A stretch of 64,000 nucleotides of DNA. It comes from Candidatus Moraniibacteriota bacterium (GTDB lineage: Bacteria > Patescibacteriota > Minisyncoccia > Moranbacterales > UBA1568). Below the pieces are notes generated by a model. The model saw nothing but the letters and a program-made list of their open reading frames with translations. It did not search any database and had not been told where the DNA came from. Positions 40,160-63,523 of the stretch are shown piece by piece (position 1 is the first letter of the stretch; the number at the start of each line of letters is the position of its first letter). The stretch lies in the NCBI GenBank assembly GCA_016182385.1, contig JACPGV010000011.1:22888-86887 (forward strand), in the 5' to 3' direction. A program made the translations under genes and the position numbers.

Positions 40160-40769
40160 AATATTTGATAAAACTTTTAGTAAGAAGCGAAACCTTTTTA
40201 TTTTGAAAGGCCTCGGCAAATCCCAGTAATTTTTTCGTATCAAAAACAAAGTCCTCATTGAAACGATATCCTCGGAATTGTTCCGAATCTCCGTTTAAAA
40301 TATTGCGTTTCAAATAAAAAAAATCCACCAGTGCCTTTTCTGGCAATGCCATATTAAAGGAAATTTTCCCGTCCTTTTTCGTTTCATATCCGCCAAATGC
40401 GCTCTTTTTGATTTTCTGATAACTGAAACGTCCCAATTTCGTATCAAACTCTTTCGTTTTCCTTGTCGTCACCGAAGTCACCGTAAACACAGCCTCCGGA
40501 ATAATTCCATAAAAACTCAACGCCTTTTCCATGCTCACATAGGATGGTTGATACATTTTTGTCGCAAACCACACAGGATCCGCATTTTTTGCCTCCTCAG
40601 CGACAACATACATACCTCTTCTCAACATAATAAGATGACCCTTGTTAACCCAATTTTTCAGATTAACAAGCATGGTACTTGTGAACGCACCACCCAGAAC
40701 AAGCCTCAGTTCTTTCGTTTCAAAAAGCGGCAATTCTTCAACTTTTTTTCTAAATTCAAAATAATTCAT
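40146..40769 (-). CDS. AbiEi-family antitoxin/transcriptional regulator (type IV TA antitoxin)
   Basis: N-terminal wHTH-like region and the conserved PSYVSMEKALSFYGIIPE motif of AbiEi antitoxins; 207 aa; immediately upstream of AbiEii. Confidence 0.75.
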   Translation of the reverse strand: MNYFEFRKKVEELPLFETKELRLVLGGAFTSTMLVNLKNWVNKGHLIMLRRGMYVVAEEAKNADPVWFATKMYQPSYVSMEKALSFYGIIPEAVFTVTSVTTRKTKEFDTKLGRFSYQKIKKSAFGGYETKKDGKISFNMALPEKALVDFFYLKRNILNGDSEQFRGYRFNEDFVFDTKKLLGFAEAFQNKKVSLLTKSFIKYYATE

Positions 40770-43460: not shown

Positions 43461-43468
43461 AACATTAC

Positions 43469-44998
43469 TTATCGTAATTTTGAAACACTGGCATGAACAG
43501 AAAACTCATTGAACCCGAAAAACCCTGATGATTTCTCCTCACCTACGTAAGTTGCTTTGACGTAGACTGTTTTCGCTACTCTGTTCCCTGGTAACGTCAA
43601 CAAAAACCGTACCCGCCCAGATGATTCCTCTACAAATGGAATTTCCTGCCAATGTTCCTTATCCAGAGAATACTCCAATTGAATTTCTGACAAATCATCG
43701 CCGTCCTGTTGTGCATCCAAAGCAAAAAATTCGAAGGGACGCCCTGTTTCAAATCGATACATGAGATACTCCCCTGTCTTCTGACTTCCTGTGATAATCT
43801 TCCTCTCCCTGTCGAAGATGATACTTTGACTCGCCTCGTAGAGATTATCATAATCAACTGGGTCGTGTCTCAATTGGAAAGCATAGAGAAGCTTCTTCCC
43901 TAAATCCTCCAACTTCGCTCCATCAGGAAAGCTATCCGCCCCATTCAACCGTGCCCGTTGGCCAATATGCACAAAAAGATCTCCCTTTTCCTTAAATTCT
44001 TTCGGGTCAACCGTCTTCTCCAATTCGCCTAAAGAAAAGAAGTTTTCTGGGTCTTTATCCTTTGGGCCAACAAAATTAAGAGCATACCAGCCGCCCTGTT
44101 TCAAAGGAAAAGAGAAAGGGAGTAGGAAATTACCAGAAAAAATTCTCATACCATTCAAAGCGTCCAATACGAAGGGTATCCTTTGAAGAGGAGCTGATTC
44201 TTTTTCTTTCGTTACACTATTGTAACGAAAGAGTTCAAAAGCATATTCTTGTCTCCCGCCACCATCTATTTTTCCTGAAAATTCGAGCGACCGAATAAAA
44301 TCACCGTCAGCCTGAAAAAGCCATTCTTTTTTCTGAGAGCTTTTATCTATATTATTTACTGAAAAAAGCTCTCGATGACTAGTCTCCGAGATACCATAAA
44401 AAGTAGGCATGAGACTGACTGCTTCAAAGCGAGTCTGCACTTCAAGCGGCGTGATATCAAAAGATTTTATGAAAACTTCTGGATCATACCATTCCATTTC
44501 TGAAACCTCAGAATTCTTTTTCAATCGAATAATAAGGTCCTGATACCTCCCAGGCGTGGAAAAGACTACTTCACGATATTGACCCTTTTCATCTGGTTCA
44601 AAAGTCCATGAGCTGATGGGCAGTATTTCATTTAGGGAAGATCGAGCCAATACCTCGACCTGTTCTTTATCCTTCGTACTCACATGAATGCCCAGGCGAA
44701 AAAAATCATTCGTTCGAGATTCGAAAAAATTCTCATAGATTTTCTCTGGGATTTTTTTAGTAAGATCGGGTCGAAAAACAAAGGCTGATTTTTCCTTCTT
44801 TGATTCAGGCTTCTTCACTACCTGATCAGGTGCTACAGCCTGATGCCAGAGGTAGGCGGTAAGAAAAATAAAAAGAATGAAGAAATAGCGAAAGTATCTC
44901 CCCAAAAAGACTCCCATTTTCCTAATCACTCCGTGAATTTCTTTCATGTTCTTCATTTTGGATATTTTATCAGTTCTGAGATGATTTGTCATGGTCAC
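43469..44998 (-). CDS. hypothetical membrane-anchored extracytoplasmic protein (509 aa)
   Basis: Single N-terminal TM (YFFILFIFLTAYLW), then a ~450 aa soluble domain; sandwiched between, and overlapping, the two YfhO-like paralogs. Confidence 0.45.
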   Translation of the reverse strand: MTMTNHLRTDKISKMKNMKEIHGVIRKMGVFLGRYFRYFFILFIFLTAYLWHQAVAPDQVVKKPESKKEKSAFVFRPDLTKKIPEKIYENFFESRTNDFFRLGIHVSTKDKEQVEVLARSSLNEILPISSWTFEPDEKGQYREVVFSTPGRYQDLIIRLKKNSEVSEMEWYDPEVFIKSFDITPLEVQTRFEAVSLMPTFYGISETSHRELFSVNNIDKSSQKKEWLFQADGDFIRSLEFSGKIDGGGRQEYAFELFRYNSVTKEKESAPLQRIPFVLDALNGMRIFSGNFLLPFSFPLKQGGWYALNFVGPKDKDPENFFSLGELEKTVDPKEFKEKGDLFVHIGQRARLNGADSFPDGAKLEDLGKKLLYAFQLRHDPVDYDNLYEASQSIIFDRERKIITGSQKTGEYLMYRFETGRPFEFFALDAQQDGDDLSEIQLEYSLDKEHWQEIPFVEESSGRVRFLLTLPGNRVAKTVYVKATYVGEEKSSGFFGFNEFSVHASVSKLR

Positions 44999-47471
44999 TT
45001 TTTTGCCTTTTTTCCTTTTTTAGAGCTCTTTTTACCAAAAGCAGCGAGTACCAAAGGAGACCGAGACCGGAAATAATTATCCCAATATATGAGACCCTCT
45101 GAGGCCAAAATTCTATAATCACTTCGACATCCTGAGTTTCATCTTTATTCTTCAGACAACTCTCAGACTGTTCCTGGCATATAGCATCTATATCAAGAAC
45201 CCAGGCGTTGGCGTAACCATTGACCACAAGTTGTCTATTCTTAGTATCGAGAGGTTCTTGAAACCACGTTTCAGAAAAGCGAGCCTCTACGAGATTATCA
45301 TTTTGAACGGTGTTAAAGAACTTTTTTGAGACAAAATCGATAGAAAATTTCTCGATAAAATCAATCTTCCCTCGATAGTCATCCCATTTTTTGTGAACAA
45401 TACTTTTTTCTTTTCCGTCTCCCAGCTCCGTGACACTCCCCTCGTTTACGAGCCTCACAAGTTCATCGCTATCAGCCTGAAAATATTTATTCTTTTCCAA
45501 TATCTTGTATTCCTTCAGTCGAGAGAGGAGTGACCCACGATCCTGATAAGAACTCTTTTTTTCCGCCAAGTATATGTTCCAATCTTTATGATACTGTTCG
45601 CTCAAAACCAGCACGACGTTCCCCTGTGCACCGTGCAAACGTACTCGATACTGCGTCGGATTGATTTTCTTGTACTCAACACTCGCCCCGGAGAAAATTC
45701 CTCCTCTGTCTATATCAGCATTTATCTCATTATCCTGAAACGAAACTTTCCGCTCAGCATGACGAATAGGCGAGTTATCAAGAAGTATTTGCGTTAATGG
45801 TGCGTCATCAAAGGTACCAATACTTTCGGCCGTATACAACTGTGGTAAAAATTCGTTTCGATCGACATACTGAATAGAGAGAAAACCCTCTTGAAAAGCC
45901 GGTACTGTATTCTTCACATAATAAACAATTTTGTTCATCAAGGAAGCGTCTTCGAATATGAAACCAACTGCATGATTCGAGAGACTCCCGAGAACCTTGT
46001 CATACCCCAAGTTATAGTTTGTGTACAAGAAGTTGTAGATAATTGGCCCAAAGAATCCCCACTGGGTATTGAGGTACGTCAGATCACTGTTGGGATAGAA
46101 CGTCCGGACGTTCATTTTTTGGTAATCAATAAACTCGCGCACCTTGTAATACTCATTTGGGATATGAAAACCACGTTGCTGAATGTTCGTATATTGGTTG
46201 ATCCCGTTGAAATTTTTATAGTACTCCCCGTTCCAGTATGGGTATCCGACATAGATCGTCACAACAAGTATAAGAGAGCTAAAAAAGAACCGTTTTCTTG
46301 GAATTTGTTCGACAAAGAAAAACAAAAGGAGCGCATAAAATACCGAGAGGAAAAAAACTGCTCCCGCTGTCGTTCGCAAAAAGGCTAACAAAGGCACACT
46401 CGCAACAAAGTGCTCATACATCTGCCCAAAAGGCTTATTTGGTCCCGCAGCAAAAAAGAGATAGATGACAAGAAGAAGCCAAACGATGATCTCGTCTCTC
46501 TTATCTACATTGTGTTCGGAGTGAATAATAAGCAGTCGTGCAAAGATGATAAAGACAAAGAAATAGCTCAGGATCAAAATGAGAGCACTCGAATTATAGG
46601 AAAGAACATCCAGATGATTCAGAAAGATAGAATCTTGATGAAGCTTCAATATCTTATCCATGGTATCCACGCCGAAATTCATCATCTTGCCAATATCCTT
46701 GTACCCCGACTTCACTTTTACCCCATAGTCGATGGGATCATAGTTTAAGGTGAAATTTGCTAAAGGCAAAAATAAATAGGCCGAAAGAACAAAGGCGAGT
46801 GAAAATTTTATGAACACCTTTCGCAGCTCTACACCAGTAATTTTTTGAAGACTCCAATTAGCAAAGAAAATAATTGCTGAGATGAGAAAAAGATGAAAAA
46901 GGTACTTCGGGTTCGGTAGATCTAGAGAGCAAAAAGCCAGTATCACATTTAACCAAAGTGCCGTTCCGATGGTGACGTCTTTCTCCTTGACGATCCTAAA
47001 AATGAAATAGATGAACCAAGGAGTAAAAGCGTACACAAATATGTAATGGTAGGCATTGAGAAGAGCTGGGGAGAGGAGATAGAACACGATCGGCACCAAG
47101 AGTTCTAGTCGTTGCGCCTTTGGGGAAAAAAGCTGAGCCAGTTTGTAAATACCAAATCCCGCAATCAACGTTAGAAAAAATAATAAGACTGCAGAAATAA
47201 AAAGGATATTACCCGTAAAAAGCTCGGCCACCCAGTACATGATGTAAAAAACATAGTAGTTCACGGCGAAGTATTGGCCATTTTTCATCTCTATCCACTG
47301 ATAGAGATATTTTTCCAGCCCCTCACTGTTGAATGGTATGAGTACATCGCCCCCGATAGAAAGACGCCCCCAAGTATAAAAAGCTGGTAACAGTGCTAAC
47401 CCAAAAATAACCAGTTCGGGAGAGTACCGAACGAGCAACCTCAAAAATGTCTTCCAAATCTCTCGGTTCAT
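44970..47471 (-). CDS. YfhO-like GT-C-fold membrane glycosyltransferase (paralog 2)
   Basis: 833 aa; same architecture as 41280..43460. The N-termini are alignable (LLVRYSPELVIFGLALLPAFYTWGRLSIGGDV vs ILLRYRWETIGVFLLVLCTLMNIFPARHILLGGDV); C-terminal TM IGIIISGLGLLWYSLLLV. Confidence 0.5.
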   Translation of the reverse strand: MNREIWKTFLRLLVRYSPELVIFGLALLPAFYTWGRLSIGGDVLIPFNSEGLEKYLYQWIEMKNGQYFAVNYYVFYIMYWVAELFTGNILFISAVLLFFLTLIAGFGIYKLAQLFSPKAQRLELLVPIVFYLLSPALLNAYHYIFVYAFTPWFIYFIFRIVKEKDVTIGTALWLNVILAFCSLDLPNPKYLFHLFLISAIIFFANWSLQKITGVELRKVFIKFSLAFVLSAYLFLPLANFTLNYDPIDYGVKVKSGYKDIGKMMNFGVDTMDKILKLHQDSIFLNHLDVLSYNSSALILILSYFFVFIIFARLLIIHSEHNVDKRDEIIVWLLLVIYLFFAAGPNKPFGQMYEHFVASVPLLAFLRTTAGAVFFLSVFYALLLFFFVEQIPRKRFFFSSLILVVTIYVGYPYWNGEYYKNFNGINQYTNIQQRGFHIPNEYYKVREFIDYQKMNVRTFYPNSDLTYLNTQWGFFGPIIYNFLYTNYNLGYDKVLGSLSNHAVGFIFEDASLMNKIVYYVKNTVPAFQEGFLSIQYVDRNEFLPQLYTAESIGTFDDAPLTQILLDNSPIRHAERKVSFQDNEINADIDRGGIFSGASVEYKKINPTQYRVRLHGAQGNVVLVLSEQYHKDWNIYLAEKKSSYQDRGSLLSRLKEYKILEKNKYFQADSDELVRLVNEGSVTELGDGKEKSIVHKKWDDYRGKIDFIEKFSIDFVSKKFFNTVQNDNLVEARFSETWFQEPLDTKNRQLVVNGYANAWVLDIDAICQEQSESCLKNKDETQDVEVIIEFWPQRVSYIGIIISGLGLLWYSLLLVKRALKKEKRQKSDHDKSSQN

Positions 47472-48325
47472 GCTTTTTTATAGAGGGCGTAAAAAGTAGG
47501 ACTCAGGAAGTCTAGTATCTTAAGAGCGACTAAAGAGAAGGAAACAATGAGTGGAATATTCTGGAGTTTCCCCAATTGGTTCCGCACCAACGTCTCTTTG
47601 TTAAGCGTCGGATATTTAAACAACACTTCTTCAAATCCATTCTTGCGCATCAATCGCCTGAGCCGATACGGGTTCGTCAGATTAACGTGCAGGCTCCGAT
47701 CGTGCTGATTCGCCTCACGCACTGCTTTCCAAGTACGAATGCCAAATATAATATGAATGAAATCAAAAACTGGACGGATAGTATTTAGGTAGAATGTATT
47801 ATCTGTGTGCACCACAATAGAGACGTCACTCCCCCACCCTCTAATCTGGGAAAGTACCAATTCAATTTCCGGATCATACATATGCTCTACGACATCTGCT
47901 AAATACACGGCTTTGATGTTCGAAAAGTCATGTTGGTAGTCATTGTTTGTATTGATAAAACGCATTTTTCCCGTATACTGAGGAATCATTTGCAGCTTTT
48001 CCTGGCAGATATCAATAGCACTCTTAGAGTAGTCTATTCCTGTACAATCACAGCCGTATCGAGAAACAAGAAAAAAAGCCAAGTCTCCATTGCCGCATCC
48101 ATAGTCCACAATCCTATCAGTTGGCTGAAGTTTGAGAAGATTTGCCATCTCGGAAAATATCGTAAGATGCCCAGTTTTGAAATACGTCCCATCTTCAGAA
48201 AGTATTGACCGCCCATAGGCATTCTGATAATACGCTTTGCTATAGAGATTGGAATCGACTTGTTCCATAGATTTTCTTTTTATGAATTCAATGCTTCGTA
48301 TTCCTTGGTCACAACCACATCCCAA
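47468..48325 (-). CDS. class I SAM-dependent methyltransferase
   Basis: Motif I VDYGCGNGDLA, acidic motif II and motif III (AVYLADVVEHM) in a Rossmann-fold MTase; 4-nt overlap with the downstream YfhO-like gene. Confidence 0.75.
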   Translation of the reverse strand: MGCGCDQGIRSIEFIKRKSMEQVDSNLYSKAYYQNAYGRSILSEDGTYFKTGHLTIFSEMANLLKLQPTDRIVDYGCGNGDLAFFLVSRYGCDCTGIDYSKSAIDICQEKLQMIPQYTGKMRFINTNNDYQHDFSNIKAVYLADVVEHMYDPEIELVLSQIRGWGSDVSIVVHTDNTFYLNTIRPVFDFIHIIFGIRTWKAVREANQHDRSLHVNLTNPYRLRRLMRKNGFEEVLFKYPTLNKETLVRNQLGKLQNIPLIVSFSLVALKILDFLSPTFYALYKKA

Positions 48326-49425
48326 CTAAACGCGTCTAGTAGTTTTTCTCCAGCTTCGTTTTTGAGTTCGTCACTCCTGAGAAGTTCGAGGGTTTTACTT
48401 GCTATACCGGCATAATCTTGCCACGGTATAATAATCACTTCATTATGCCGATAGAGATGTCGGAATGGTGGGAGGTTATATACCAAAGCTTGTTTCCCAG
48501 AACAGACCACTTCCAAAAGCGCTACTCCAAAACTTTCATCATAGCTAAAAAACCAAAACAATTTTGAGGATTTTATTACATTAAACTTCTCGGTGCCAAC
48601 CTTATACCCCAGGAAAAAGATGTTCTGCTCCAGGTTCATTTTCTGAATGCGTTCTTGATAAGCTTTGACGGTTGGCTCGTCTCCTCCGCCCATGATACCC
48701 AACCGAAAATTTGGCTGTTCCTTCACTACCAAAGCAAGGCTCTCGAGCATATCATAGATTCCCTTTTTCTCATTGATTCTCCCCATGAATAAGGCGTCGA
48801 AAGTATATCGCTCATCAAGCACTGCCTCCCGAATTCTCTGACCCTCCACCGCACATCCGGTCAGTACAATCTGATTTCGTTTAAATCTATGTTCCAGGAG
48901 ATAAGTTTCTAGATCTGGCGTAATGACATAAATTTTATCTGCCCTTCGGAGCAAGTGTAGACTCATATGAAAAAATACCCACGCCAAGAAACGTATACCT
49001 TTATTACCAGGTCCTTGGAGTGGCACTGTATTGTCGAACACTGTAATCCACTTCGTTTCCGGATGAAAAAGCCGGTAAAAGAAAGGAAAGAGAGTAAACT
49101 CGAGAACGGAGGTTAATGTGTAGAGCACATCATAGTTACCAGTCTTCACTTTGCCATACTGTCGAAATACCAAAAGGTTTCTACGCAGCGCGTACCAAAT
49201 GTACCGAAGCTTTGTGAAGCGTTCCTCTGGAATATTTCTAAGCTCATCCATCTCCGCATTAAAGGCATAGACATCTTTTCCTTTAAGGTTAATCCGCTCG
49301 ATGAAAACGCCCGTCTGAATATATATTTCATACCCAAGTTCTTCCCATTTTTTCATCTTGATAAGCCAGATAATCTGAATCCCCTCACGATTCAGATTGA
49401 CGATATTGACAAGCATTTTTTTCAT
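48280..49425 (-). CDS. glycosyltransferase family 4 (GT-B, glycosyl transferase group 1)
   Basis: C-terminal retaining GT-B signature E-x7-E region (SYDESFGVALLEVVCSGKQALV); 381 aa. Confidence 0.75.
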   Translation of the reverse strand: MKKMLVNIVNLNREGIQIIWLIKMKKWEELGYEIYIQTGVFIERINLKGKDVYAFNAEMDELRNIPEERFTKLRYIWYALRRNLLVFRQYGKVKTGNYDVLYTLTSVLEFTLFPFFYRLFHPETKWITVFDNTVPLQGPGNKGIRFLAWVFFHMSLHLLRRADKIYVITPDLETYLLEHRFKRNQIVLTGCAVEGQRIREAVLDERYTFDALFMGRINEKKGIYDMLESLALVVKEQPNFRLGIMGGGDEPTVKAYQERIQKMNLEQNIFFLGYKVGTEKFNVIKSSKLFWFFSYDESFGVALLEVVCSGKQALVYNLPPFRHLYRHNEVIIIPWQDYAGIASKTLELLRSDELKNEAGEKLLDAFSWDVVVTKEYEALNS

Positions 49426-49439
49426 ATTCTCTCGACTAT

Positions 49440-50075
49440 TTATTTGCTATATATCGCCACAATCTGACCACCAAACAATATTCTTCTCGTTAAGAAATTC
49501 ATCTTGAAATGAAAGATGTACGGAGTAAACATTTCCTTCTTAGAAAGACCTACTCTTCTCAAGAAAAAATCCATCGTGTAGGGAGTAAACAGCATACGAT
49601 GTGTCGGATCTACTTCGCCGGTAAAGTTCTTGCTGCCCAAAAAACGGGTTAAGCTATTGGCATTAGGTGTGGTCACAATAAGCAAGCCACCCTTTTTCAG
49701 ATGTTTTTGAAGTATTTGTTCCAGTGGAACAAAATTCGTTAAATGCTCTACAACATCAAACATCGTGATGACATCGAAAGACTCTTCCAAAGGAAATATT
49801 CCTTGATTCAAATCCATTTGGAAAAATCGATCTTTGATATGGGGAAACTTTTCCTGACACTGCTTTACGGCATACTCAGAATAATCACAGCCATAGCACG
49901 TGCTGGTTCGCTCAATATTCCCTATAAACTCACCAGTGGCACAGCCAACGTCCAATACTTTCTTCTCTTTCAACGAGACTCCCAGAGTAGCTAAAAAAGA
50001 AAGATAAGCCGGGAACACTTCACCGCTTTTGGTCGTCTCTCTAGTAAAATATTCTTGGCTATACATAGTGTTCAT
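49440..50075 (-). CDS. class I SAM-dependent methyltransferase
   Basis: Motif I VLDVGCATGEF and post-I/II motifs (DVITMFDVVEHL); 211 aa. Confidence 0.75.
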   Translation of the reverse strand: MNTMYSQEYFTRETTKSGEVFPAYLSFLATLGVSLKEKKVLDVGCATGEFIGNIERTSTCYGCDYSEYAVKQCQEKFPHIKDRFFQMDLNQGIFPLEESFDVITMFDVVEHLTNFVPLEQILQKHLKKGGLLIVTTPNANSLTRFLGSKNFTGEVDPTHRMLFTPYTMDFFLRRVGLSKKEMFTPYIFHFKMNFLTRRILFGGQIVAIYSK

Positions 50076-51159
50076 CTTTCAATGATTCAAAGACTTCTAT
50101 CATCTTTTGTGCAGATGATTCCCAGGTAAACTGACTCGCAAACTCCAAGTTCGTTTCAATCAACTGTTGACGTTTCTCTGACGAAAGCGCGACCAATCGC
50201 TCCATAACTTGAGTTATTTCTGGAACGTTCTTAGCATCAAACATCCATTCTCTATGGGGATTCACTTCTGGAAGAGAGCTATTATCCGCCGACAATACCG
50301 GGCAGTGCTGCGCCATAGACTCAATAACCGGCAAACCGAAACCCTCATAGAAAGATGGGTAAATAAAGAATGCCGCATGTCGATAGAGATTCTTCAGCTG
50401 TTCTTCTGAAACAAAGCCCAGCAATTTCACCCGTTCGGATATGTGGAGCGCCTCAGCCAGTGACCGAAGCTCTTTCTGATGACCCTCACTCATCAAGCCA
50501 GCAATGACATATGTATAGTTTCTAAGTTGATCACTCCCTGCCATGGCACGAAGCACGCTAAAGATATTTTTTCGACTCGGATGGGTAGTCACAGAAAAAA
50601 AATAAGGCTCTTGTACAATTGGTTGTTCGTTTTCTGGTTCCGTCCAGAAAATATCATTAATCCCTGGATAGATAACACTTATTTTCTTTTCAGAAGTTCC
50701 AAAAAAGTGAACCACATCACGCTTCGTGCTTTCAGAAATACACACGATATGATCCGCTTTCTTCAGTGACCGCCCAATAGAATACGTATGGTAAACCTTG
50801 TAAAGAGCGGAGTAAAGTTTCGGAAAATGAAGGAATGCAAGGTCATAGACTGTCATGGTGTATTTCACGCCTCTCTTTTTCCCAACAGGCAAAAGTACTG
50901 AGGCTCCATGGACCACATCAACTTTATTTCGCCGGATGAGCGAGTGAATAAGAAAAGTGTCGAAAAGCACCGCCCCCCACAAAGTATCGGGCAATTTGAA
51001 CTGCTCTGTCTTACCAATCGTCTTATTGAGTTGTGTCTGAAAAAAAAGATAGTCATTCTTTTTGTCAAGCTCAAGAATTTTAGAGAACAACAAATAAACA
51101 TAGTAGGGCACCCCACTGTTTTTGTTCTGATAAATCCTCGAATTAATGCCTATTCTCAT
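50059..51159 (-). CDS. glycosyltransferase family 4 (GT-B)
   Basis: PSFYEGFGLPVIESMAQHCPVLSADNSSLPEV, the classic GT4 EX7E motif; 366 aa. Confidence 0.8.
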   Translation of the reverse strand: MRIGINSRIYQNKNSGVPYYVYLLFSKILELDKKNDYLFFQTQLNKTIGKTEQFKLPDTLWGAVLFDTFLIHSLIRRNKVDVVHGASVLLPVGKKRGVKYTMTVYDLAFLHFPKLYSALYKVYHTYSIGRSLKKADHIVCISESTKRDVVHFFGTSEKKISVIYPGINDIFWTEPENEQPIVQEPYFFSVTTHPSRKNIFSVLRAMAGSDQLRNYTYVIAGLMSEGHQKELRSLAEALHISERVKLLGFVSEEQLKNLYRHAAFFIYPSFYEGFGLPVIESMAQHCPVLSADNSSLPEVNPHREWMFDAKNVPEITQVMERLVALSSEKRQQLIETNLEFASQFTWESSAQKMIEVFESLKDEHYV

Positions 51160-51182
51160 CTACGTATGCCCTTTCGTTGTAA

Positions 51183-51923
51183 TTAGCCTCTTTTCTGCGC
51201 CTTCAGATAGAATCTTGTCGGTACCAGCGATCCCTTCAGGCCTTTCAATATCCGCTCTCGCATTTTCTGACTGGTCGTATAAGAAGTGCGGAAAATATGT
51301 TTGCAGATGTAAAAGTAAAGCATGTCTAGATCCCAATACAGGTTACCAATCTCTTGATTTTCCGTCACTCCAAAGCCAGCACCAGAGAGAATACTCTCGA
51401 GCTTCTTTTTAGAGTAATGCCGATGCCCGAGCATCCATGCTGGATCAATCGGATTAAGAATATGACTACGCATCGTACTCACAATGAGCACTCCATCTGG
51501 TTTAAGAAGCTTGTGAAAAAACTGCAGCGCTACCCCCTCCTTGCCTTTTGGAACATGCTCAATGACATCAAGGAAGATCACCGTATCGAATGTTCCTCCG
51601 TGCTTAGCAATAAATCCTTCATTCCCACTCATAAGTTGGCACTGTTCAAAGGAAAAATGTGGGAAATTCCTCCGAGCTACTGAGAGGGCATCATCATTTT
51701 CATCGATACCCGTCAGGTCAGTCTGGATATTCTTCTTGGTGATAGTCTTTTCAAGTGGTCCCGTCCAACAACCCGCATCAAGTACTTTCTTCCCTTCAAT
51801 ATGTGGACGATAGTAGTCAACTACAAATTCATGTTGATAATTATCGACAATATCCTGATCATTGAGCTCTACATATTCCATGCTACCATTATACGAAAGC
51901 ATCCTCTTGAGAAAATTTGCCAT
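51183..51923 (-). CDS. class I SAM-dependent methyltransferase
   Basis: Motif I VLDAGCWTGPL and VIFLDVIEHV; 246 aa. Confidence 0.75.
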   Translation of the reverse strand: MANFLKRMLSYNGSMEYVELNDQDIVDNYQHEFVVDYYRPHIEGKKVLDAGCWTGPLEKTITKKNIQTDLTGIDENDDALSVARRNFPHFSFEQCQLMSGNEGFIAKHGGTFDTVIFLDVIEHVPKGKEGVALQFFHKLLKPDGVLIVSTMRSHILNPIDPAWMLGHRHYSKKKLESILSGAGFGVTENQEIGNLYWDLDMLYFYICKHIFRTSYTTSQKMRERILKGLKGSLVPTRFYLKAQKRG

Positions 51924-51934
51924 AATATTATTAC

Positions 51935-52915
51935 TTATTTATTTTTAGAAAGTCTCTCTACGTCAGCGTCTACCATCATTTTAACTAGCTCTTCAAATCC
52001 TACCTCCGACTCCCAGCCCAACACCTTTTTAGCTTTGTCGTTCTTCCCATGAAGTGCATAGAGCTCGACTGGCCGATTGAACTGGGGATCGATTTTCACG
52101 TACCGCTCCCAATCATTGATACCGACATGTTCGAATGCTACATTCAAAAAATCACGAATTGAGTGTGTTACCCCGGTCGAAAGAATATAGTTATCTGGCT
52201 TTTCCTGTTGAAGCATAAGCCACATAGCCTTCACGTAATCACCAGCAAATCCCCAATCGCGCTTACTATCCAAATTACCAAGCCTAATCTCTTCAGCTAA
52301 ACCAAGCTTAATACGAGCCACTCCATCACTAATCTTTCGTGTCACAAAGCGTAGCCCTCGAATTGGTGATTCGTGATTAAAAAGAATACCATTGGCACAA
52401 AACATACCGTAGCTCTCACGGAAATTGACCGTCATCCAGTAGGCATAGAGTTTTGAGATAGCATAGGGACTCTTAGGATGAAAAGGAGTTTCTTCGGTTT
52501 GCAGTCCTTCCGTATGACTGTCTCCAAACATTTCACTGGTCGAAGCCTGGTAAAATTTCGTCTTTGGTGAGAAATCTTTAATTGCTGTTAGGAGATAAAG
52601 CACTCCCAATGAATTGACCTCTGTAGTGAGCTTTGCCTGTTCCCAGGATGCCCCTACAAATGACTGGGCAGCCAAATTGTATACTTCATCAGGCTGGTGT
52701 TCGGCGATGATCTTTCGAAGCGACTCCTCATCGGCCATGTCACCGTTCACAAAAGTGATCTTCTCTCGCACATTGAGGAAGTCAAGATTTTCAAAATTAA
52801 CCGCTGTAAGATCACGAGCTAACCCAAGCACTTCATAGCCCTTTGCAAGCAAAAACTTCGACAGATAGGCTCCATCTTGCCCTGCTACTCCAGTAATGAG
52901 TGCCTTTTTTTTCAT
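51935..52915 (-). CDS. gmd: GDP-mannose 4,6-dehydratase (copy 2)
   Basis: ALITGVAGQDGAYLSKFLLAKGYEVLG (GxxGxxG Rossmann), catalytic triad region SPYAISKLYA and NHESPIRG, all characteristic of Gmd. Start trimmed to MKKKALITG (ATG at 52915). Confidence 0.85.
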   Translation of the reverse strand: MKKKALITGVAGQDGAYLSKFLLAKGYEVLGLARDLTAVNFENLDFLNVREKITFVNGDMADEESLRKIIAEHQPDEVYNLAAQSFVGASWEQAKLTTEVNSLGVLYLLTAIKDFSPKTKFYQASTSEMFGDSHTEGLQTEETPFHPKSPYAISKLYAYWMTVNFRESYGMFCANGILFNHESPIRGLRFVTRKISDGVARIKLGLAEEIRLGNLDSKRDWGFAGDYVKAMWLMLQQEKPDNYILSTGVTHSIRDFLNVAFEHVGINDWERYVKIDPQFNRPVELYALHGKNDKAKKVLGWESEVGFEELVKMMVDADVERLSKNK

Positions 52916-54060: not shown

Positions 54061-55002
54061 TCATGCTTGCATTTTGAAATCCACCATTTTCTGAATCATT
54101 TCTTCAAAACCAACTCTTGGTTGCCACCCCGTTGTTCGTTTTAATTTCTCGGCATTTCCCACCATCGGCAAGCGCTTCCTCGTCAGAATGGCTTTATTCT
54201 CACGAACATACTGCCGCCAATCGAGACCAACGTGCTCGAAGGCTATCGACACTAAATCTTGAATGGCATGCTTCTGTCCAGTAGCGATGATAAACTCGTC
54301 CGGTTTCTCTAACTGCAATATTCGGTAGGCAGCCTCTACATAGTCAGGGGCATAGCCCCAGTCTACCTCGACTGATAAATCCCCTACCGTAAGCTCAGTT
54401 TCCGTACCCTTTTTGATATTGACCGCCCCCACTACTACTTTCATAGAGACAAACTTCTCAGCGCGATATTCTGACTCATGGTTATAAAAAATACCAACCG
54501 CAGCAAAAAGACCGTACTTCTCTCGATACAAACGACTGATCAAAAGACCATCAAGTTTAGTGATACCGTAGGGATTATTCGGCTGAAACGGTGTCGTCTC
54601 ATCCTGCGCTTCAGTATTTACCTCGCCAAAGATAAGTGAAGAAGCAGCGTAAAATATTCTTGTCTTGGGAGAATACAGCCGCGCGCCCTCGAGAAAGTTA
54701 AGGTAAGAGAAGACGTGCACCGTATAACTTTTTTCGAAGAGTTCCACTTCATCGATTTGCGCATCTTGGGAAGAATGATGGAAAGCGGCCAGATAGTAGA
54801 CCTCATCTGGTTGAACCGCCTGAAGAAAAGAGGCGACCTGCTCTCGATCTGTGATATCTACCCGCTTCTGCCAATCGTTCCCGTCACTTCGTACAACACC
54901 TCGGTCGAGTCCGATGACACTGTATCCCTTCTTAACAAGTAGCTCAAAAAGGAACCGTCCGTCCTGGCCCTGTGATCCGACAATGACCGCTATCTTACTC
55001 AT
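54061..55002 (-). CDS. Gmd/Rmd-family short-chain dehydrogenase: probable GDP-4-keto-6-deoxyhexose reductase (Rmd-like)
   Basis: 313 aa; VGSQGQDGRFLFELLVKKGYSVIGLDR Rossmann motif and YxxxK (NPYGITKLDG). Gmd-like but shorter, and it lacks the Gmd-specific insert, as in GDP-6-deoxy-4-keto-mannose reductases. Confidence 0.65.
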   Translation of the reverse strand: MSKIAVIVGSQGQDGRFLFELLVKKGYSVIGLDRGVVRSDGNDWQKRVDITDREQVASFLQAVQPDEVYYLAAFHHSSQDAQIDEVELFEKSYTVHVFSYLNFLEGARLYSPKTRIFYAASSLIFGEVNTEAQDETTPFQPNNPYGITKLDGLLISRLYREKYGLFAAVGIFYNHESEYRAEKFVSMKVVVGAVNIKKGTETELTVGDLSVEVDWGYAPDYVEAAYRILQLEKPDEFIIATGQKHAIQDLVSIAFEHVGLDWRQYVRENKAILTRKRLPMVGNAEKLKRTTGWQPRVGFEEMIQKMVDFKMQA

Positions 55003-56249
55003 ACCACTTCTATCTTAGGCAGAGGAAACATAAGATGACCACCATCTTCAAGGTATTCCGTTTCCCGCTCGATAATACCCTTCTTGAAGTGCCACGGCAG
55101 CACCATAAAGTAGTCAGGCTTCATAGCCTTGGCTTCCTTTTCAGAAATGATCGGGATAAGCGTGCCCGGTGTCAATCTGCCAAACTTATAGTCATTCACT
55201 TCCGCTATATACGGCATTTCTTTTGGAGTAATGCCACAGTATTGGAGGATGACATTTCCCTTCGTTGAAGCGCCGTAGCCAAAAATCTTTTTTCCATCAG
55301 CTGCTGCCTTCTGGAAGAACTCCATCAAGTCCTTTCGGTGTTGTTCGGTGTTTTTCCGAAAATCCTCATAAATCTTGAGATCGTCGAAACCGCGCGCCAC
55401 CTCTTCGGCCAGCACCTCCTTCACCTGATCAACCATTTCCTCATGCTGCGAATCTTTTTTGGCAAAGGTCACAGCAAAACTAGCGCCATTCGTGTCATTG
55501 AACTCGAGGTCAATCACCTTAAGATTTGCTCGCTCAGCCATCCAAACAAACTGTTTGAGTGCATAGTACTCTAGGTGTTCATGGCAAATAGTGTCGTAGG
55601 AAACATTATCAATCATGGCCGGCATATAACTCTGCTCTACCACCCAAATACCATCGTCAGTAAGGACACTTTCGATGTCTTGCATAATCTGGAGTGGTTC
55701 TGGGAGATCATAAAACATCGCAATAGATGTCACGACTCGTGCTTTCTTTTCGCCACGTTCTTTTTTCACAGCAGCAGCAGTAAAAAAACTTGGGACATGA
55801 GCGATATATGGAGGGTAGTATTCCTGGAACTTATCCGAGGTCGGGTCAACACCTAAGAGATCAAGCTTTGTATTTTTGTACGAAGAAAGAAGCGTCCCAT
55901 CATTACTCGCAATATCGATGACAAGATCCCCATCCTTCAAATCCATCCTCTGTTCGATTTTCTCCACAATCCCCTCCAAGTGCTTCACCATTGACTTATT
56001 CAACGCAGAACGGTACCCATAATTGTCTCCGTACAATTTCTCCATTTCGTAGTCATGTCGGAGCTGTACGAGTCCACAGACGTCTTCGCCTAACGAGCTG
56101 AAACACTTCACCATTTCCAACGGCCCCTCTTCAACCACCTCGCCCGGGAGAGGAAAAACCCCTGTCAGTGCCTGACTCCCCAGATCAACTACGGAAACCA
56201 GATTCGTATTTCCACAAATTCGACAGTGCTTGATTTCTTGATACAACAT
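54999..56249 (-). CDS. NDP-hexose C-methyltransferase (TylCIII/NovU family: N-terminal zinc ribbon + class I MTase + C-methyltransferase C-terminal domain)
   Basis: HCRICGNTNLVSVVDLGSQAL zinc-ribbon start, CHEHLEYY, GYGASTKGNVILQ and GGHLMFPLP align with TylCIII-type sugar 3-C/5-C-methyltransferases; 416 aa; 4-nt overlap with the reductase gene. Confidence 0.7.
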   Translation of the reverse strand: MLYQEIKHCRICGNTNLVSVVDLGSQALTGVFPLPGEVVEEGPLEMVKCFSSLGEDVCGLVQLRHDYEMEKLYGDNYGYRSALNKSMVKHLEGIVEKIEQRMDLKDGDLVIDIASNDGTLLSSYKNTKLDLLGVDPTSDKFQEYYPPYIAHVPSFFTAAAVKKERGEKKARVVTSIAMFYDLPEPLQIMQDIESVLTDDGIWVVEQSYMPAMIDNVSYDTICHEHLEYYALKQFVWMAERANLKVIDLEFNDTNGASFAVTFAKKDSQHEEMVDQVKEVLAEEVARGFDDLKIYEDFRKNTEQHRKDLMEFFQKAAADGKKIFGYGASTKGNVILQYCGITPKEMPYIAEVNDYKFGRLTPGTLIPIISEKEAKAMKPDYFMVLPWHFKKGIIERETEYLEDGGHLMFPLPKIEVV

Positions 56250-56276
56250 ATTTTTGAGCGCTCCTTAATTACAAAA

Positions 56277-57320
56277 TTAGTAATGGTAATCCGTTTCGCC
56301 CTTGAGATCATACTTCATCATCAACTTCACAAGTTCCTCAAAACCCATTTTCGGTCTCCAGCTAAGTTTCCTCTGGGCCTTGGAATTATCTCCGATCAAG
56401 AGATCTACTTCTGCCGGTCGAAAATACATTGGGTCAATTTCCACCAACACTTTGCCCGTAGTTTTGTCCTTACCCTTCTCATTAATCCCTTCACCCTCCC
56501 ATACCAAATCATAACCTGCCTCTTTGAAGGCAAGCTCACAAAACTCCCGTACTGTATGGGTCTCACCAGTTGAAATCACAAAATCTTCTGGCTTCTCCTG
56601 CTGAAGCATCAGCCACATCGCCTCTACATAGTCTTTAGCATAACCCCAATCACGCTTGGCATCGAGATTCCCCAGATAAATTCTCTCTTGTGTTCCATTT
56701 TTAATACCAGCAACACCAGTGGTAATTTTTCTCGTTACAAAAATTTTTCCTCGACGTGGCGACTCATGATTAAATAAAATACCATTACAAGCAAAAAGAT
56801 TATATGCCTCACGATAATTCACCACAATCCAATAAGCATAAAGCTTGGCGACCCCATAGGGAGAGCGTGGGTAAAATGGAGTAGTCTCCTTCTGGGGTGT
56901 TTCCTGGACCTTGCCGAACAATTCCGAAGTCGAAGCCTGATAGAACTTCGTTTTGATGCCAGTCTCTTTGATAGCATCTAGGAAACGAAGCGTGCCCAGG
57001 GCATCAACTTCAGCAGTATATTCTGGAACCTGAAAAGAAATATGCACATGTGACTGCGCGGCAAGATTATATATTTCATCAGGCTTGATCATCTCAAGCA
57101 AACGGTTCAAGTTGCTTGAATCCGTCAAATCACCGTAGTGGAGATGAATCCTCGACTTTTCCGAATGTGACCCTGAAAACATATGGTCAATCCGTTCGGT
57201 ATTGAAGATCGAAGCCGCTCGACGTAAACCGTGCACTTCATAACCTTTTTCCAAAAGAAGTTCTGCCAAATAAGACCCGTCCTGACCTGTAATTCCAGTA
57301 ATAAGTGCTTTTTTTATCAT
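56277..57320 (-). CDS. gmd: GDP-mannose 4,6-dehydratase (copy 1, canonical)
   Basis: [31 protein letters not shown] ... [12 protein letters not shown] ... NHESPRRG ... C-terminal tail; full-length 347 aa, closely alignable with canonical bacterial Gmd. Confidence 0.9.
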
Positions 57321-57862: not shown

Positions 57863-59572
57863 CTATCGATTGACCGCGCTATCCTCAAGACGCACGGCAT
57901 CCTTTTCCTTGTCTACAGAGGTTTTTGATTTGAAAAAATGACCAGTAAGTTTGCCAAAAACATTCTTCCAAAATTTCTTTGAAGTAAAGCTCACATTTGT
58001 TTTTGTTTGATTTGGATCAAAGTCAAGCAAATGCCCTATAAGTCTCTTTCCTGCTGAATAAAAAAACTTCAAATCATCAATGCTACGAATACTTATAATT
58101 TTTCGAAAAATGAATCGTGGAGAGAAAAAGGCCGAATAAAGATCCTGGGTCAAACTCAAAAGCTGTTCCTGAGTCAAGGGAATCTTCATAACTGATCCAC
58201 GCATATCATAATCATCATAATCTTCCGTTACCAAGAGTCCTTTTTCCTTACACTCTTTCCACAGAGGGGTTCCCGGATACGGAACAACGATCGTCGCCTG
58301 CATGGTGGCAAAATATCCCTTCTTAAAACAGTATTTAGCTACGGCAATGGTCCGTTTCGAATCTTCATAATCTTCCCACGGATATCCAAGCATAATGGTA
58401 GCATGCGGCTCAAGACCAGCCTTTGAAGCCATGCGAGCGCCATTAATAGTGTCAGCTTCTTTTGTTCCTTTATCAAGCTTATCAAGTGTTTTTTGGTTTC
58501 CCGACTCCATTCCATACAAAATAAAACGAAACCCTGCCTTCGCCATGAGATTATAATATTCTTGATTCAAAGCATTAAACCGCATATTACAACCATAAAT
58601 AACCTTTTTGTTGTAACCACTCTCAATCAACAGCTCACAAAATTTCTTGAGTTTTGGACCAATAAAAAGTGTGCCGGCATCATCAAAAATTTCCCGAATA
58701 CCATATTTATCCACTACATGTTTCACCTCTGCAAACAAGCGTTCGGGAGAAAAGCTCCGATACGTACCAAGAGGATTGATCGTATGATCCCATACACAGA
58801 ACGTGCAACGATTCCACCAACAATCACGGCCACTGTACATATACGTTCCTGGTGTATATTTGTAATTTCCGTTTTCATAGGCGTACAATTCCCAACGAGT
58901 CAAATCCCGATCAATAAAAGGCAAAGCATCGAGAGCATGTCGCACCCAATCCGGACCAGAACTATAAATTTTTTCACCTGATGGCAAAGTTGTGGTTTCT
59001 TTTGGAGTGACTTTTATCTCAGTATTTCCTTCACGCCAATATACTCCCCCCTCAAGTTCTTCTCCTCGATAAATATGATTCAAGAGATTTACAATCAAAA
59101 AATCATAATCACCGCCTCGTAAAATATAGTCTATCTTGCTATTTTCAAATTGCTCAAGCGGCATGAAAGTAACATGATCTCCCACCCAAATAAGTTTGAG
59201 GTGCGGCAATTTTTCTTTCAAATCATTAATTTGCTTCCAATGTCTTTTAATAACCGGTGATTTTGATTCTACAAGTAAATACTCGGCCCCCGTGGCGCGA
59301 AGCTCATCAACCCACTGATCATATTCTTTATGCTCAGAAATACCATCCATCCAATAAACTTTATACCCTTGATCCTGAAGATACGAGGCGGCATAAGCAG
59401 GCACCATCGGATAAATGTATGTGGGGGCATTGAAATATTGAAACTGCCGGTTCTGACTCAGAAGTGCTACTCCTTTCTCTGATTTTATAGGCGGATATCC
59501 CACCGCCACCACTATTTCTTTTGGAAGAGGTATCAGATTTTTCTTTTCTTCTTTTGTCTCGCCAGTGTTCAT
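57863..59572 (-). CDS. B12-binding domain radical SAM protein (class B radical SAM, putative methyltransferase)
   Basis: N-terminal Rossmann-like cobalamin-binding region, Cys cluster SGRDCWWNRCTFCVWD, and a downstream radical-SAM TIM-barrel (GYPWE... glycine-rich SAM motifs); ~570 aa from MNTGETKEE (ATG at 59572). The track's 59692 start overlaps the ferredoxin gene. Confidence 0.7.
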   Translation of the reverse strand: MNTGETKEEKKNLIPLPKEIVVAVGYPPIKSEKGVALLSQNRQFQYFNAPTYIYPMVPAYAASYLQDQGYKVYWMDGISEHKEYDQWVDELRATGAEYLLVESKSPVIKRHWKQINDLKEKLPHLKLIWVGDHVTFMPLEQFENSKIDYILRGGDYDFLIVNLLNHIYRGEELEGGVYWREGNTEIKVTPKETTTLPSGEKIYSSGPDWVRHALDALPFIDRDLTRWELYAYENGNYKYTPGTYMYSGRDCWWNRCTFCVWDHTINPLGTYRSFSPERLFAEVKHVVDKYGIREIFDDAGTLFIGPKLKKFCELLIESGYNKKVIYGCNMRFNALNQEYYNLMAKAGFRFILYGMESGNQKTLDKLDKGTKEADTINGARMASKAGLEPHATIMLGYPWEDYEDSKRTIAVAKYCFKKGYFATMQATIVVPYPGTPLWKECKEKGLLVTEDYDDYDMRGSVMKIPLTQEQLLSLTQDLYSAFFSPRFIFRKIISIRSIDDLKFFYSAGKRLIGHLLDFDPNQTKTNVSFTSKKFWKNVFGKLTGHFFKSKTSVDKEKDAVRLEDSAVNR

Positions 59573-59585
59573 ATTGAATTTGATG

Positions 59586-59846
59586 TTATTTTTTTGGATA
59601 AATTTTTTCACCGCCCTGATATACTTCGATCGCCAACACCGAACAAGATTGAGCCGCTTCAATAATTTTTTCAAGACTATCCCAGTCGCCATCTTTTATA
59701 ATGGCAATATTTTTTTCATCAAGATCAAAAGTTGACGGACTATACACGACACACGTAGCGGCACCGACACACTTTTCTCTCAAAATACGAATTTCAATAT
59801 CGCCTTTTTTTACTATCTGGAGAGCCTCATCTTGTTGCATAAACAA
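59586..59846 (-). CDS. ferredoxin (single-cluster Fe-S, Fer4-like)
   Basis: 86 aa; CVGAATCVVYSPSTFDL ... AAQSCSVLAIEV, the C-x5-C...C-(P) pattern of mono-cluster [3Fe-4S]/[4Fe-4S] ferredoxins; 13 nt upstream of the radical SAM gene. Confidence 0.55.
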   Translation of the reverse strand: MFMQQDEALQIVKKGDIEIRILREKCVGAATCVVYSPSTFDLDEKNIAIIKDGDWDSLEKIIEAAQSCSVLAIEVYQGGEKIYPKK

Positions 59847-62353: not shown

Positions 62354-63523
62354 TCAGTAAAAATTATCCACCGTCAATAATTTGACTTTCGCTTCGGAAT
62401 ATCTGTTCTTGAAAGCCTTGTTGATAGCTTTTCGCTTGTATTTAATCTCTACTCCGATAATTTCGCTACCTTTTTCCAGTACAACATCTATCTCGGAACC
62501 CTGCTTCGTTCTCCAATAATAAAATTTAAAGCCTCTATCAGAATAGCTGTCCTGTTTTATCAATTCACTGATTATGAAATTTTCAAACAAAGATCCTTTA
62601 TCCACTCTCGAATTCAAATCGGAAAAATCCTCAATCAAGGCATTTCTCACGCCAGTATCGTAGAAAAATATCTTTGCTGATTTCGATATTTCATCTCTTT
62701 TCCTTTTTGAATACGGATATAATCGAAACAAAATGAAGCTCTGCTCAAAAATCTCAATATACCTTTTGACAGTCCGCTGGTCAGTTTTCAAACTACTGGC
62801 CAATTCAGAATAATTTATAAGATTGCCAATCTGGAAAGCCAGAAGTTTCAATAAATTCTTAGCAAGCTTCTTATCCTCAATCAAATGTAATTCGAGAATG
62901 TCCTTGAAAATCAGACTATCCACAAAATTCAACAAGTATTTCTCATCATTCGGATATTTGATAAAATGAGGATACTGTCCATACACCAGAACACTATCCA
63001 GTATGTTCTTTATATCAAACGCATAGAATTGCTCTTTTGGGTTATCTTTTTCATCATCAATAATTTTTTCAAGAATGTTAAAATTCAAACTCTTCTCAAT
63101 ACCCTTCTGGTTCAGATATTCAGAAAAAGTAAGCGGGTAAATATTATAATCGATTTTTCTCCCCGCGAGACTCTCACCCGTCTTGTTTTTTATATGAAAA
63201 GAAGATGATCCGGTGATAATAATCCTCAGATTATTCATCTGATCATACAATATCTTTATAGCTCTTCCGGGATTGTCAAGCAGATGAATCTCATCGATGA
63301 TAATCTCTTTTGCCTTCTTATTTATAATTGTTTTATATGTCTCTATATCATATGTCTCCAATATCTTCTTGATCGGCTCATTATCCACAAGAAAATACTC
63401 CGCGTTCGGAAATATCTTTTTGACTATAGTTGTCTTTCCAGCCTGTCTCGATCCAAGCAAAATAAGTACTTGTTCGTACTTTTTAAAGTGTTCACTCATT
63501 TGGAAATCAAGATGTCTTTTCAT
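62354..63523 (-). CDS. AAA-family ATPase with C-terminal DUF4143 domain
   Basis: Walker A LLGSRQAGKTT, Walker B IIIDEIH; C-terminal region typical of the widespread archaeal/bacterial DUF4143 ATPases; 389 aa. Confidence 0.8.
   Translation of the reverse strand: MKRHLDFQMSEHFKKYEQVLILLGSRQAGKTTIVKKIFPNAEYFLVDNEPIKKILETYDIETYKTIINKKAKEIIIDEIHLLDNPGRAIKILYDQMNNLRIIITGSSSFHIKNKTGESLAGRKIDYNIYPLTFSEYLNQKGIEKSLNFNILEKIIDDEKDNPKEQFYAFDIKNILDSVLVYGQYPHFIKYPNDEKYLLNFVDSLIFKDILELHLIEDKKLAKNLLKLLAFQIGNLINYSELASSLKTDQRTVKRYIEIFEQSFILFRLYPYSKRKRDEISKSAKIFFYDTGVRNALIEDFSDLNSRVDKGSLFENFIISELIKQDSYSDRGFKFYYWRTKQGSEIDVVLEKGSEIIGVEIKYKRKAINKAFKNRYSEAKVKLLTVDNFY

Follow-up and report, generated by a model that had tools for sequence, protein, structure and literature searches.

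A stretch of 64,000 nucleotides (nt) from a Candidatus Moraniibacteriota bacterium (assembly GCA_016182385.1, contig JACPGV010000011.1, positions 22,888 to 86,887), called the window below, carries three adjacent genes of nucleotide-sugar metabolism. These encode a 4,6-dehydratase of guanosine diphosphate (GDP)-mannose (Gmd), a predicted S-adenosylmethionine (SAM)-dependent C-methyltransferase, and a short-chain dehydrogenase/reductase of 313 amino acids (aa) related to Gmd, hereafter the 313-aa SDR. On the map of open reading frames (ORFs), all three were found on the minus strand, where a preliminary description made from the letters of the DNA alone had placed them. As the ORFs are long and their family matches very strong, chance is not an issue. 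The trio lies within a larger glycan locus (Table 1), and probably diverts GDP-mannose towards a C-methylated 6-deoxyhexose.

Table 1. The three genes under study and other features of the glycan locus in the window.
Feature	Positions	Strand	Matches and remarks
Gmd, 347 aa	56277-57320	-	TIGR01472, PF16363; predicted maker of GDP-4-keto-6-deoxy-D-mannose
Predicted SAM-dependent nucleoside diphosphate (NDP)-4-ketohexose C-methyltransferase, TylCIII/EryBIII-like clade, 416 aa	54999-56249	-	PF08421, PF13489 and PF08484
Gmd-derived SDR lacking the dehydratase Glu, 313 aa	54061-55002	-	PF16363; putative NAD(P)H-dependent 4-ketoreductase of the methylated intermediate
GT4 glycosyltransferase, 379 aa	52917-54056	-	PF13692, PF00534, PF13439; candidate transferase of the branched sugar
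Multi-pass membrane protein, 169 aa	57317-57826	-	No Pfam or NCBIfam match
Ferredoxin	59586-59846	-	Fer4_15/Fer4_13
B12-binding radical SAM enzyme	57863-59692	-	PF04055 and PF02310; true start probably an internal ATG
Second Gmd, a short form of about 326 aa if MKKKALITG is taken as its start	51935-52915	-	TIGR01472 (405 bits), PF16363 (1e-123)
Unidirectional, tightly packed glycan locus, about 19 genes	41280-61868	-	ORF map, spacings and Pfam assignments

The first gene of the trio is a canonical Gmd, as the preliminary description had it. Its product scores 582.9 bits on the TIGR01472 equivalog model, for a cut-off of 415, matches PF16363 (9e-155) and is 61% identical to E. coli Gmd. Alignment with the latter places the catalytic and NADP motifs STSE, YGVAK and GITGQDG, so that the TSE and YxxxK catalytic residues are present.

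For the second gene, a search with hidden Markov models recovered the three-domain architecture that had been ascribed to it, made of PF08421 (zinc domain, 3e-12), PF13489 (methyltransferase, 4.5e-11) and PF08484 (C-terminal domain of C-methyltransferases, 6e-53), the last being the domain on which the preliminary description had staked its assignment. NCBIfam offered no model for this protein (0 families). Its full-length matches in the PDB are MtmC (1.5e-57, residues 6-415), KijD1 (2e-43) and TcaB9 (9e-40), and it is 100% identical to MBI2439721.1, from a Candidatus Moranbacteria metagenome-assembled genome (MAG). We aligned it with 81 relatives of at least 50% identity, the published numbering of TcaB9 being fixed through the entry of its H181N mutant, 4E2W. 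Tyr77, Glu224 and His225 of the window enzyme correspond to Tyr76, Glu224 and His225 of TcaB9, and are invariant in 81/81 relatives. Equally constant in the window enzyme and in the 81 relatives are two replacements, of TcaB9 His181 by Asp and of Tyr222 by Cys; distant paralogues within the same loci (25-28% identity) retain His181 and Tyr222. The zinc cysteines C9, C12, C49 and C58 are conserved in 71 to 81 of the 81 relatives, the second pair being spaced CX8C and not CX2C.

The window enzyme thus has much in common with the C-3 methyltransferases TylCIII, EryBIII, MtmC, TcaB9 and KijD1 (4RV9, 5T64, 3NDI): the same three domains over a full-length alignment, the zinc cysteines, the SAM-binding DxxxNDG motif, and Tyr76, Glu224 and His225. 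It differs from TcaB9, KijD1 and MtmC by Asp181, Cys222 and its CX8C zinc knuckle, where theirs is CX2C, and from the group by its gene context, which points to a GDP sugar and not to a deoxythymidine diphosphate (dTDP) sugar. A tblastn search against plasmids gave a bimodal distribution, one group of matches at 47-52% identity and the remainder at 40% or below. Relatives at 47-51% identity include actinomycete C-methyltransferases encoded inside dTDP-deoxysugar clusters: the one of Streptomyces griseofuscus plasmid pSGRIFU1 has a type I polyketide synthase, a glycosyltransferase and rfbB as neighbours, and that of a Pseudonocardia adjoins rfbA, rfbB and an NDP-hexose 2,3-dehydratase gene. These actinomycete members also carry Asp181 and Cys222. 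We therefore rejected this pair of residues as a signature of GDP specificity; since dTDP-context members share it, it rather marks the TylCIII/EryBIII-like clade. Judged by alignment, the two changes would define a sub-clade without excluding the enzyme from the TylCIII/TcaB9 family, and "TylCIII-type" appears a fair label for it. In a rough neighbour-joining tree, built without bootstrap and without TylCIII, NovU, TiaS2 and CBU_0691, the three actinomycete dTDP-context enzymes were sister to one large clade holding all the enzymes found in a Gmd/reductase context, with the window enzyme nested among the trios of Patescibacteria.

The third gene proved the least ordinary. The 313-aa SDR matches PF16363 (9e-71), and is 100% identical to a protein of a Candidatus Moranbacteria MAG named "GDP-mannose 4,6-dehydratase" by NCBI. 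This public annotation can be ruled out: the score on TIGR01472 is just 209.7 bits, for the cut-off of 415, and the catalytic Glu of the dehydratase is found in 0 of 43 orthologues. Nor is the protein an orthologue of Rmd, which reduces GDP-4-keto-6-deoxy-D-mannose. Its best solved relatives are Gmds (P. aeruginosa Gmd 1RPN, 4e-62, 213 bits); the Rmd structure 2PK3 follows at 3e-20 and 76 bits, behind eleven Gmd structures, the Rmd 6X3B gave no match at E≤1e-10, and the protein lacks SSEEYG, RDF and RPSE, the motifs of Rmd. The "Rmd-like reductase" of the preliminary description is therefore to be understood as a functional analogy only.

To situate the protein more precisely, an alignment was made of the 43 orthologues, 23 true Gmds, the Gmd, Fcl and RmlB of E. 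coli, and an Rmd sequence checked against the PDB. The whole clade keeps the Rossmann GxxGxxG motif and the Ser/Tyr/Lys triad. At the position of the catalytic Glu, which is present in 23/23 true Gmds as well as in Rmd and RmlB, the orthologues have His (23), Leu (18, as in the window) or another residue (2). The Arg of the RDW motif is replaced by Val, Ile or Leu in 37/43, Arg not being among the four commonest residues there, and the FRPAE motif is lost. The clade has an invariant motif of its own, AAxHxSS, followed by a 5-residue insertion. On these sequence characters, the 313-aa SDR belongs to a distinct Gmd-derived clade, predicted to be unable to dehydrate. Since the Rossmann motif and the triad are intact, an oxidoreductase activity is plausible, and the intact triad together with the position in the operon leads us to infer that it acts as a reductase. 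It shares with Rmd the SDR superfamily and the presumed reduction of a GDP-4-keto-6-deoxyhexose at C4; it differs in that Rmd keeps the Glu, the Arg of RDx and the RPxE motif, all three of which are missing from this separate branch off Gmd. In NCBI and JGI records the entire clade is named "GDP-mannose 4,6-dehydratase" while scoring about half the equivalog cut-off, which looks like a systematic misannotation.

The three genes are closely packed. In the sequence GTGGTATGAGTAAG, the stop codon of the C-methyltransferase gene and the start codon of the 313-aa SDR gene share ATGA. Of the 4-nt overlaps announced by the preliminary description, this one is real, whereas 27 nt, with AAGGAG among them, lie between Gmd and the C-methyltransferase. 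A second ATGA overlap joins the stop of the 169-aa membrane ORF to the start of Gmd, and the GT4 gene begins 4 nt past the reductase stop.

We then looked at how far this arrangement is conserved. Close relatives of the C-methyltransferase were detected in at least 595 species by a pattern scan of one genome per species. The comparison below bears on the best 80 loci, with 50-70% identity to the window enzyme. They come from Patescibacteria (Parcubacteria, Falkowbacteria, Collierbacteria, Peregrinibacteria and Saccharibacteria), from Bacteroidota, Planctomycetota, Verrucomicrobiota, Omnitrophota, Nitrospirota, Myxococcota, Bdellovibrionota, Leptospira, Rhizobium and Methylobacterium, and from one archaeon. 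Of the 76 loci that offer sufficient sequence, 45 have a gene of the 313-aa type directly downstream of the C-methyltransferase gene, and 19 of these repeat the 4-nt overlap. Conversely, 3/3 sampled homologues of the 313-aa SDR (53-58% identity) adjoin a C-methyltransferase. A true Gmd is directly upstream in 14/73 loci and within 8 kb in 20/80, and the full trio is found in 13; the commonest neighbour family upstream is that of GDP_Man_Dehyd-type SDRs (19/66). RmlA is present in just 5/80 loci, and neither ManB nor ManC in any of the 80. The partnership of the C-methyltransferase with Gmd and the 313-aa SDR, as proposed for the window, is thus conserved across phyla. Assembly errors being possible, three natural fusions also deserve mention: in a Falkowbacteria MAG (locus L004, 1423-3624), the C-methyltransferase and the Glu-less SDR form a single 733-aa ORF with all domains, and in two Bdellovibrionales MAGs (L015, 9319-11010; L052, 9318-11000) the SDR is fused to what is by eye a Dpm1-like GT2, for a total of about 560 aa.

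Two plasmids connect the C-methyltransferase with GDP-mannose. In Azospirillum oryzae the gene order is manC, C-methyltransferase, Rmd-type SDR, then glycosyltransferases, a sulfotransferase and gmd. The SDR is here a genuine Rmd type (SSEVYG, RDF, RPSD), and occupies the slot after the methyltransferase that the 313-aa SDR holds in the window. In Phyllobacterium zundukense, the surroundings of the C-methyltransferase gene include gmd, manC, manB and a gene of rhamnan synthesis. As to sugars, 3-C-methyl-D-rhamnose (D-evalose) occurs in the O-antigens of Phyllobacterium trifolii and Azorhizobium caulinodans, as well as in orthosomycins, and the O-antigen of Burkholderia andropogonis contains 3-C-methylrhamnose, the absolute configuration of which was not determined. 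The likeness with these three O-antigens is one of product class, the link from gene to sugar being presumed. D-rhamnose itself is made from GDP-mannose via Gmd and Rmd, an established pathway (PMC3539893). Because of these GDP-mannose gene links, of the 3-C-methyl-D-rhamnose O-antigens and of the D-rhamnose route, GDP-6-deoxy-3-C-methylhexose is the most likely product class.

To our knowledge, the TylCIII-like enzymes tested in vitro act on dTDP sugars only. The preliminary description, in stating that such enzymes are known to act on dTDP sugars, was right to that extent, but the statement does not hold for proposed pathways (Coxiella virenose, PMC3539893; fidaxomicin, PMC12205737). For the virenose of Coxiella burnetii, a GDP route was proposed in silico only, with Gmd CBU_0689, the TylCIII-like CBU_0691 and the Fcl-like CBU_0688 (PMC3539893); as late as 2026, its characterisation was still described as incomplete. 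It resembles the pathway considered here in that Gmd is followed by a TylCIII-type methylation of GDP-4-keto-6-deoxy-D-mannose, then by a reduction, and differs by its last enzyme, an epimerase/reductase of the GDP-fucose-synthase type in place of a Gmd-derived SDR. For fidaxomicin (tiacumicin), a GDP-linked C-methylation was proposed with the Gmd-family proteins FadS1 and FadS4 and the C-methyltransferase FadS2/TiaS2 (PMC12205737). Compared with the window by its description, this system also uses Gmd-family enzymes and a C-methyltransferase to make a C-methylated D-rhamnose derived from GDP-mannose; the methyl is on C5, however, and the sugar decorates a macrolide. With these two proposals in print, and 3-C-methyl-D-rhamnose a reported O-antigen sugar, the description of such branched sugars as "rarely described" was too strong. 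That they were not known from bacteria of the Candidate Phyla Radiation (CPR) is correct for the chemistry; the gene module itself occurs in many Patescibacteria MAGs. The host is such a bacterium too, as confirmed by the 100% identities to Candidatus Moranbacteria proteins.

In the pathway that we propose, Gmd would oxidise and dehydrate GDP-D-mannose, with GDP-4-keto-6-deoxy-D-mannose as the product. Deprotonation next to the 4-keto group would then generate an enolate, and the TylCIII-type enzyme would transfer the methyl of SAM to an adjacent carbon, most likely C3. In TcaB9-type enzymes, His225 and Glu224 have a catalytic role; by analogy with the residues mutated in TcaB9, they are the candidate base residues here. 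The translationally coupled, Gmd-derived SDR, no longer a dehydratase, would finally reduce C4 with NAD(P)H, yielding GDP-3-C-methyl-D-rhamnose (D-evalose) or its C4 epimer. The GT4 encoded next to it would probably transfer this branched sugar, and with the rest of the 20-kb locus would build it into a heavily methylated surface glycan of the Moranbacteria cell. We estimate at roughly 65% the probability that the trio forms such a three-step branch from GDP-mannose to a GDP-6-deoxy-3-C-methylhexose. The GDP pathway is favoured because the observed family assignments, conserved catalytic residues and conserved gene order, as well as the fusion, the GDP-mannose links, the chemical precedents and the tree, all point in its direction; GDP as the nucleotide, the carbon that receives the methyl, the activity of the SDR as a reductase and the configuration at C4 are inferred.

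Several observations weigh against this pathway. With E. coli reference queries, no manC or manB was found in the 64-kb window, nor any of rmlA-D. At 47-51% identity, the nearest relatives with a clear nucleotide context are the actinomycete enzymes of dTDP pathways. Residues that contact the nucleotide diphosphate, namely the Arg of RDW and those of FRPAE, occur without exception in Gmd and are found in Rmd too; the 313-aa clade has lost them, which makes its mode of nucleotide binding hard to predict. The Collierbacteria locus L012, otherwise largely syntenic with the window, has neither Gmd nor reductase, which implies that the C-methyltransferase does not strictly depend on having them next door. 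Finally, a member of the methyltransferase family, MtmC, was reported to be a ketoreductase as well (PMC3539893), which makes a separate reductase less obviously needed.

The same three-enzyme logic could place the methyl on C5, in the manner of NovU and TiaS2, and give GDP-5-C-methyl-D-rhamnose or the epimer of this sugar at C4. The 4-keto group has C3 on one side and C5 on the other, and the fidaxomicin cluster, with two Gmd-family genes and FadS2/TiaS2, is described as giving GDP-5-methyl-D-rhamnose. Two residues of the sugar site, where the clade has Asp for His181 and Cys for Tyr222, set it apart from the C3 enzymes of studied structure, and may be read in the same direction; but Asp181 and Cys222 are also present in actinomycete 2,6-dideoxysugar clusters (rfbA, rfbB, 2,3-dehydratase), where C3 methylation is expected. 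Since, moreover, branched D-rhamnose occurs as the 3-C-methyl form in O-antigens of a genus carrying the clade, we consider methylation at C5 unlikely. A further possibility is that two separate pathways meet at this locus: Gmd and the 313-aa SDR would make an unbranched GDP-6-deoxyhexose (D-rhamnose or 6-deoxy-D-talose), and the C-methyltransferase would use a dTDP or cytidine diphosphate sugar made elsewhere in the genome. Its relatives, both characterised and assigned by context, do act on dTDP sugars; it stands in L012 without Gmd or reductase, and most loci have no Gmd within 8 kb (Gmd in 20/80). This is difficult to reconcile with the association of the reductase clade and the C-methyltransferase, adjacent in 45/76 loci, overlapping in 19 and fused in one, with the C-methyltransferase neighbour of all three sampled reductase homologues, with the lack of RmlA and RmlB in the window and rarity of RmlA among the 80 loci, and with the manC directly upstream in Azospirillum. 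We regard such a split as quite improbable.

The 313-aa SDR may also be something other than a simple terminal reductase, and oxidise C4 transiently without dehydration, or epimerise. The pair would then suffice to methylate a non-deoxy GDP-hexose, of the 3-C-methyl-D-mannose type, or would give an epimerised product. Most loci indeed have the C-methyltransferase/SDR pair without a nearby Gmd, and 3-C-methyl-D-mannose exists in the O-antigen of Helicobacter pylori. The position of the lost Glu, moreover, is a His in about half of the clade; GDP-fucose synthase has at this position a Cys, which serves as an acid/base in epimerisation. In the window, however, the residue is Leu, neither acid nor base, and a canonical Gmd lies immediately upstream, so that a 6-deoxy-4-keto substrate is at hand; as for the other loci, Gmd is often elsewhere in the genome, and its absence from a 17-kb stretch says little. 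This role for the 313-aa SDR seems to us very unlikely. A bolder version of the proposed GDP pathway would make the Glu-less and Arg-less Gmd-derived clade an unrecognised enzyme family, with a C-methyltransferase as obligate coupled partner and a chemistry or stereochemistry unlike that of Rmd; with the B12 radical SAM enzyme and the further methyltransferases, it would yield an undescribed, branched and multiply methylated sugar in Moranbacteria. An obligate, physically coupled partnership is suggested by the stop/start overlaps and by the one natural fusion of the two proteins. If all of this were true, no component of a CPR cell-surface glycan would have been defined before this sugar; we hold this version for rather doubtful.

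The trio is a further case of a known, widespread and predicted GDP-sugar C-methylation module, the idea of which is already in the literature; it is a useful lead for annotation and enzymology rather than a surprise. No biochemically proven GDP-linked biosynthesis of a C-methyl-6-deoxyhexose was found in the literature searched, and a search on PF08484/Methyltransf_14 returned no paper. What we add is modest: the definition of the Glu-less Gmd-derived partner clade, the recognition of its misannotation, and the link to sugars of the D-evalose type. If the pathway works as proposed, GDP-activated C-methyl-6-deoxyhexoses, D-evalose among them, can be reached by a definite route that is easy to put to the test. 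In public databases, a large clade bears the name "GDP-mannose 4,6-dehydratase" though devoid of the residue required for dehydration. As regards the CPR, the locus suggests a surface glycan rich in methyl groups for Moranbacteria.

The surrounding glycan locus opens with a UDP-xylose-synthase-like SDR, a GT2, the ferredoxin, the radical SAM enzyme, the 169-aa membrane ORF and Gmd, continues with the C-methyltransferase, the reductase, the GT4, the second Gmd and class I methyltransferases alternating with GT4s, and ends with three large membrane proteins. A GT4 is found at the equivalent position in the Moranbacteria relatives L081 and L090, and in L012 a 61%-identical GT4 orthologue directly follows the C-methyltransferase. 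The ferredoxin and radical SAM pair upstream of the module is shared with L081, L082 and L090, which also have an unannotated gene of 165-174 aa between the radical SAM gene and Gmd. The best NCBIfam match of the radical SAM enzyme is HpnJ, at 142 bits, far under the HpnJ cut-off. In L012, a radical SAM gene with 62% identity directly precedes the C-methyltransferase, the order being GT2, radical SAM (62%), C-methyltransferase (57%), GT4 (61%), then methyltransferases and glycosyltransferases. Through the ferredoxin/radical SAM pair, the same glycan could undergo a second modification, either a methylation or a rearrangement by radical chemistry.

The second Gmd keeps the TSE, RDW and RPxE motifs and is 46% identical to E. 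coli Gmd; its 405 bits on TIGR01472 are just below the cut-off, and it brings to three the Gmd-family genes of the locus. This second copy is absent from the close relative L081. Further along (47468-51923, minus strand), class I SAM methyltransferases of 246, 211 and 285 aa alternate with GT4s, which makes four methyltransferases with the C-methyltransferase, and L012 has orthologues of these genes in the same order, at 37-51% identity. Such an alternation suggests that the glycan is heavily methylated. Proteins of 833, 509 and 726 aa close the locus (41280-47471, minus strand); those of 833 and 726 aa are clearly multi-pass membrane proteins, and none of the three has a Pfam match. The syntenic locus of L012 also ends with a protein without Pfam match, of 735 aa. 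These large terminal proteins are possibly GT-C-like polymerases or transferases. Among the other loci, L091 includes an ArnE/F-like small transporter and a GT87; together with the SDR-GT2 fusions, this hints that the sugar may pass to polyprenyl phosphate.

Operon boundaries were set from gene spacing as sole basis, the scan for promoters and terminators having given counts not above those of shuffled sequence (40 for 41 expected, and 22 for 15±4). At the upstream edge of the locus, a stretch of lower G+C content (0.35; 62354-63523, minus strand) encodes an ATPase with AAA_14 and DUF4143 domains. Just downstream of the locus (39362-40769, minus strand), an upstream 207-aa ORF without Pfam match is overlapped at its end by the gene of an AbiEii-type nucleotidyltransferase toxin (PF08843, 2.5e-23), and the two probably make up a type IV toxin-antitoxin system. 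Elsewhere the window holds housekeeping genes, recognised by eye from their translations, for example those of DnaK, AlaS, CysS, DnaB, enolase and MraY.

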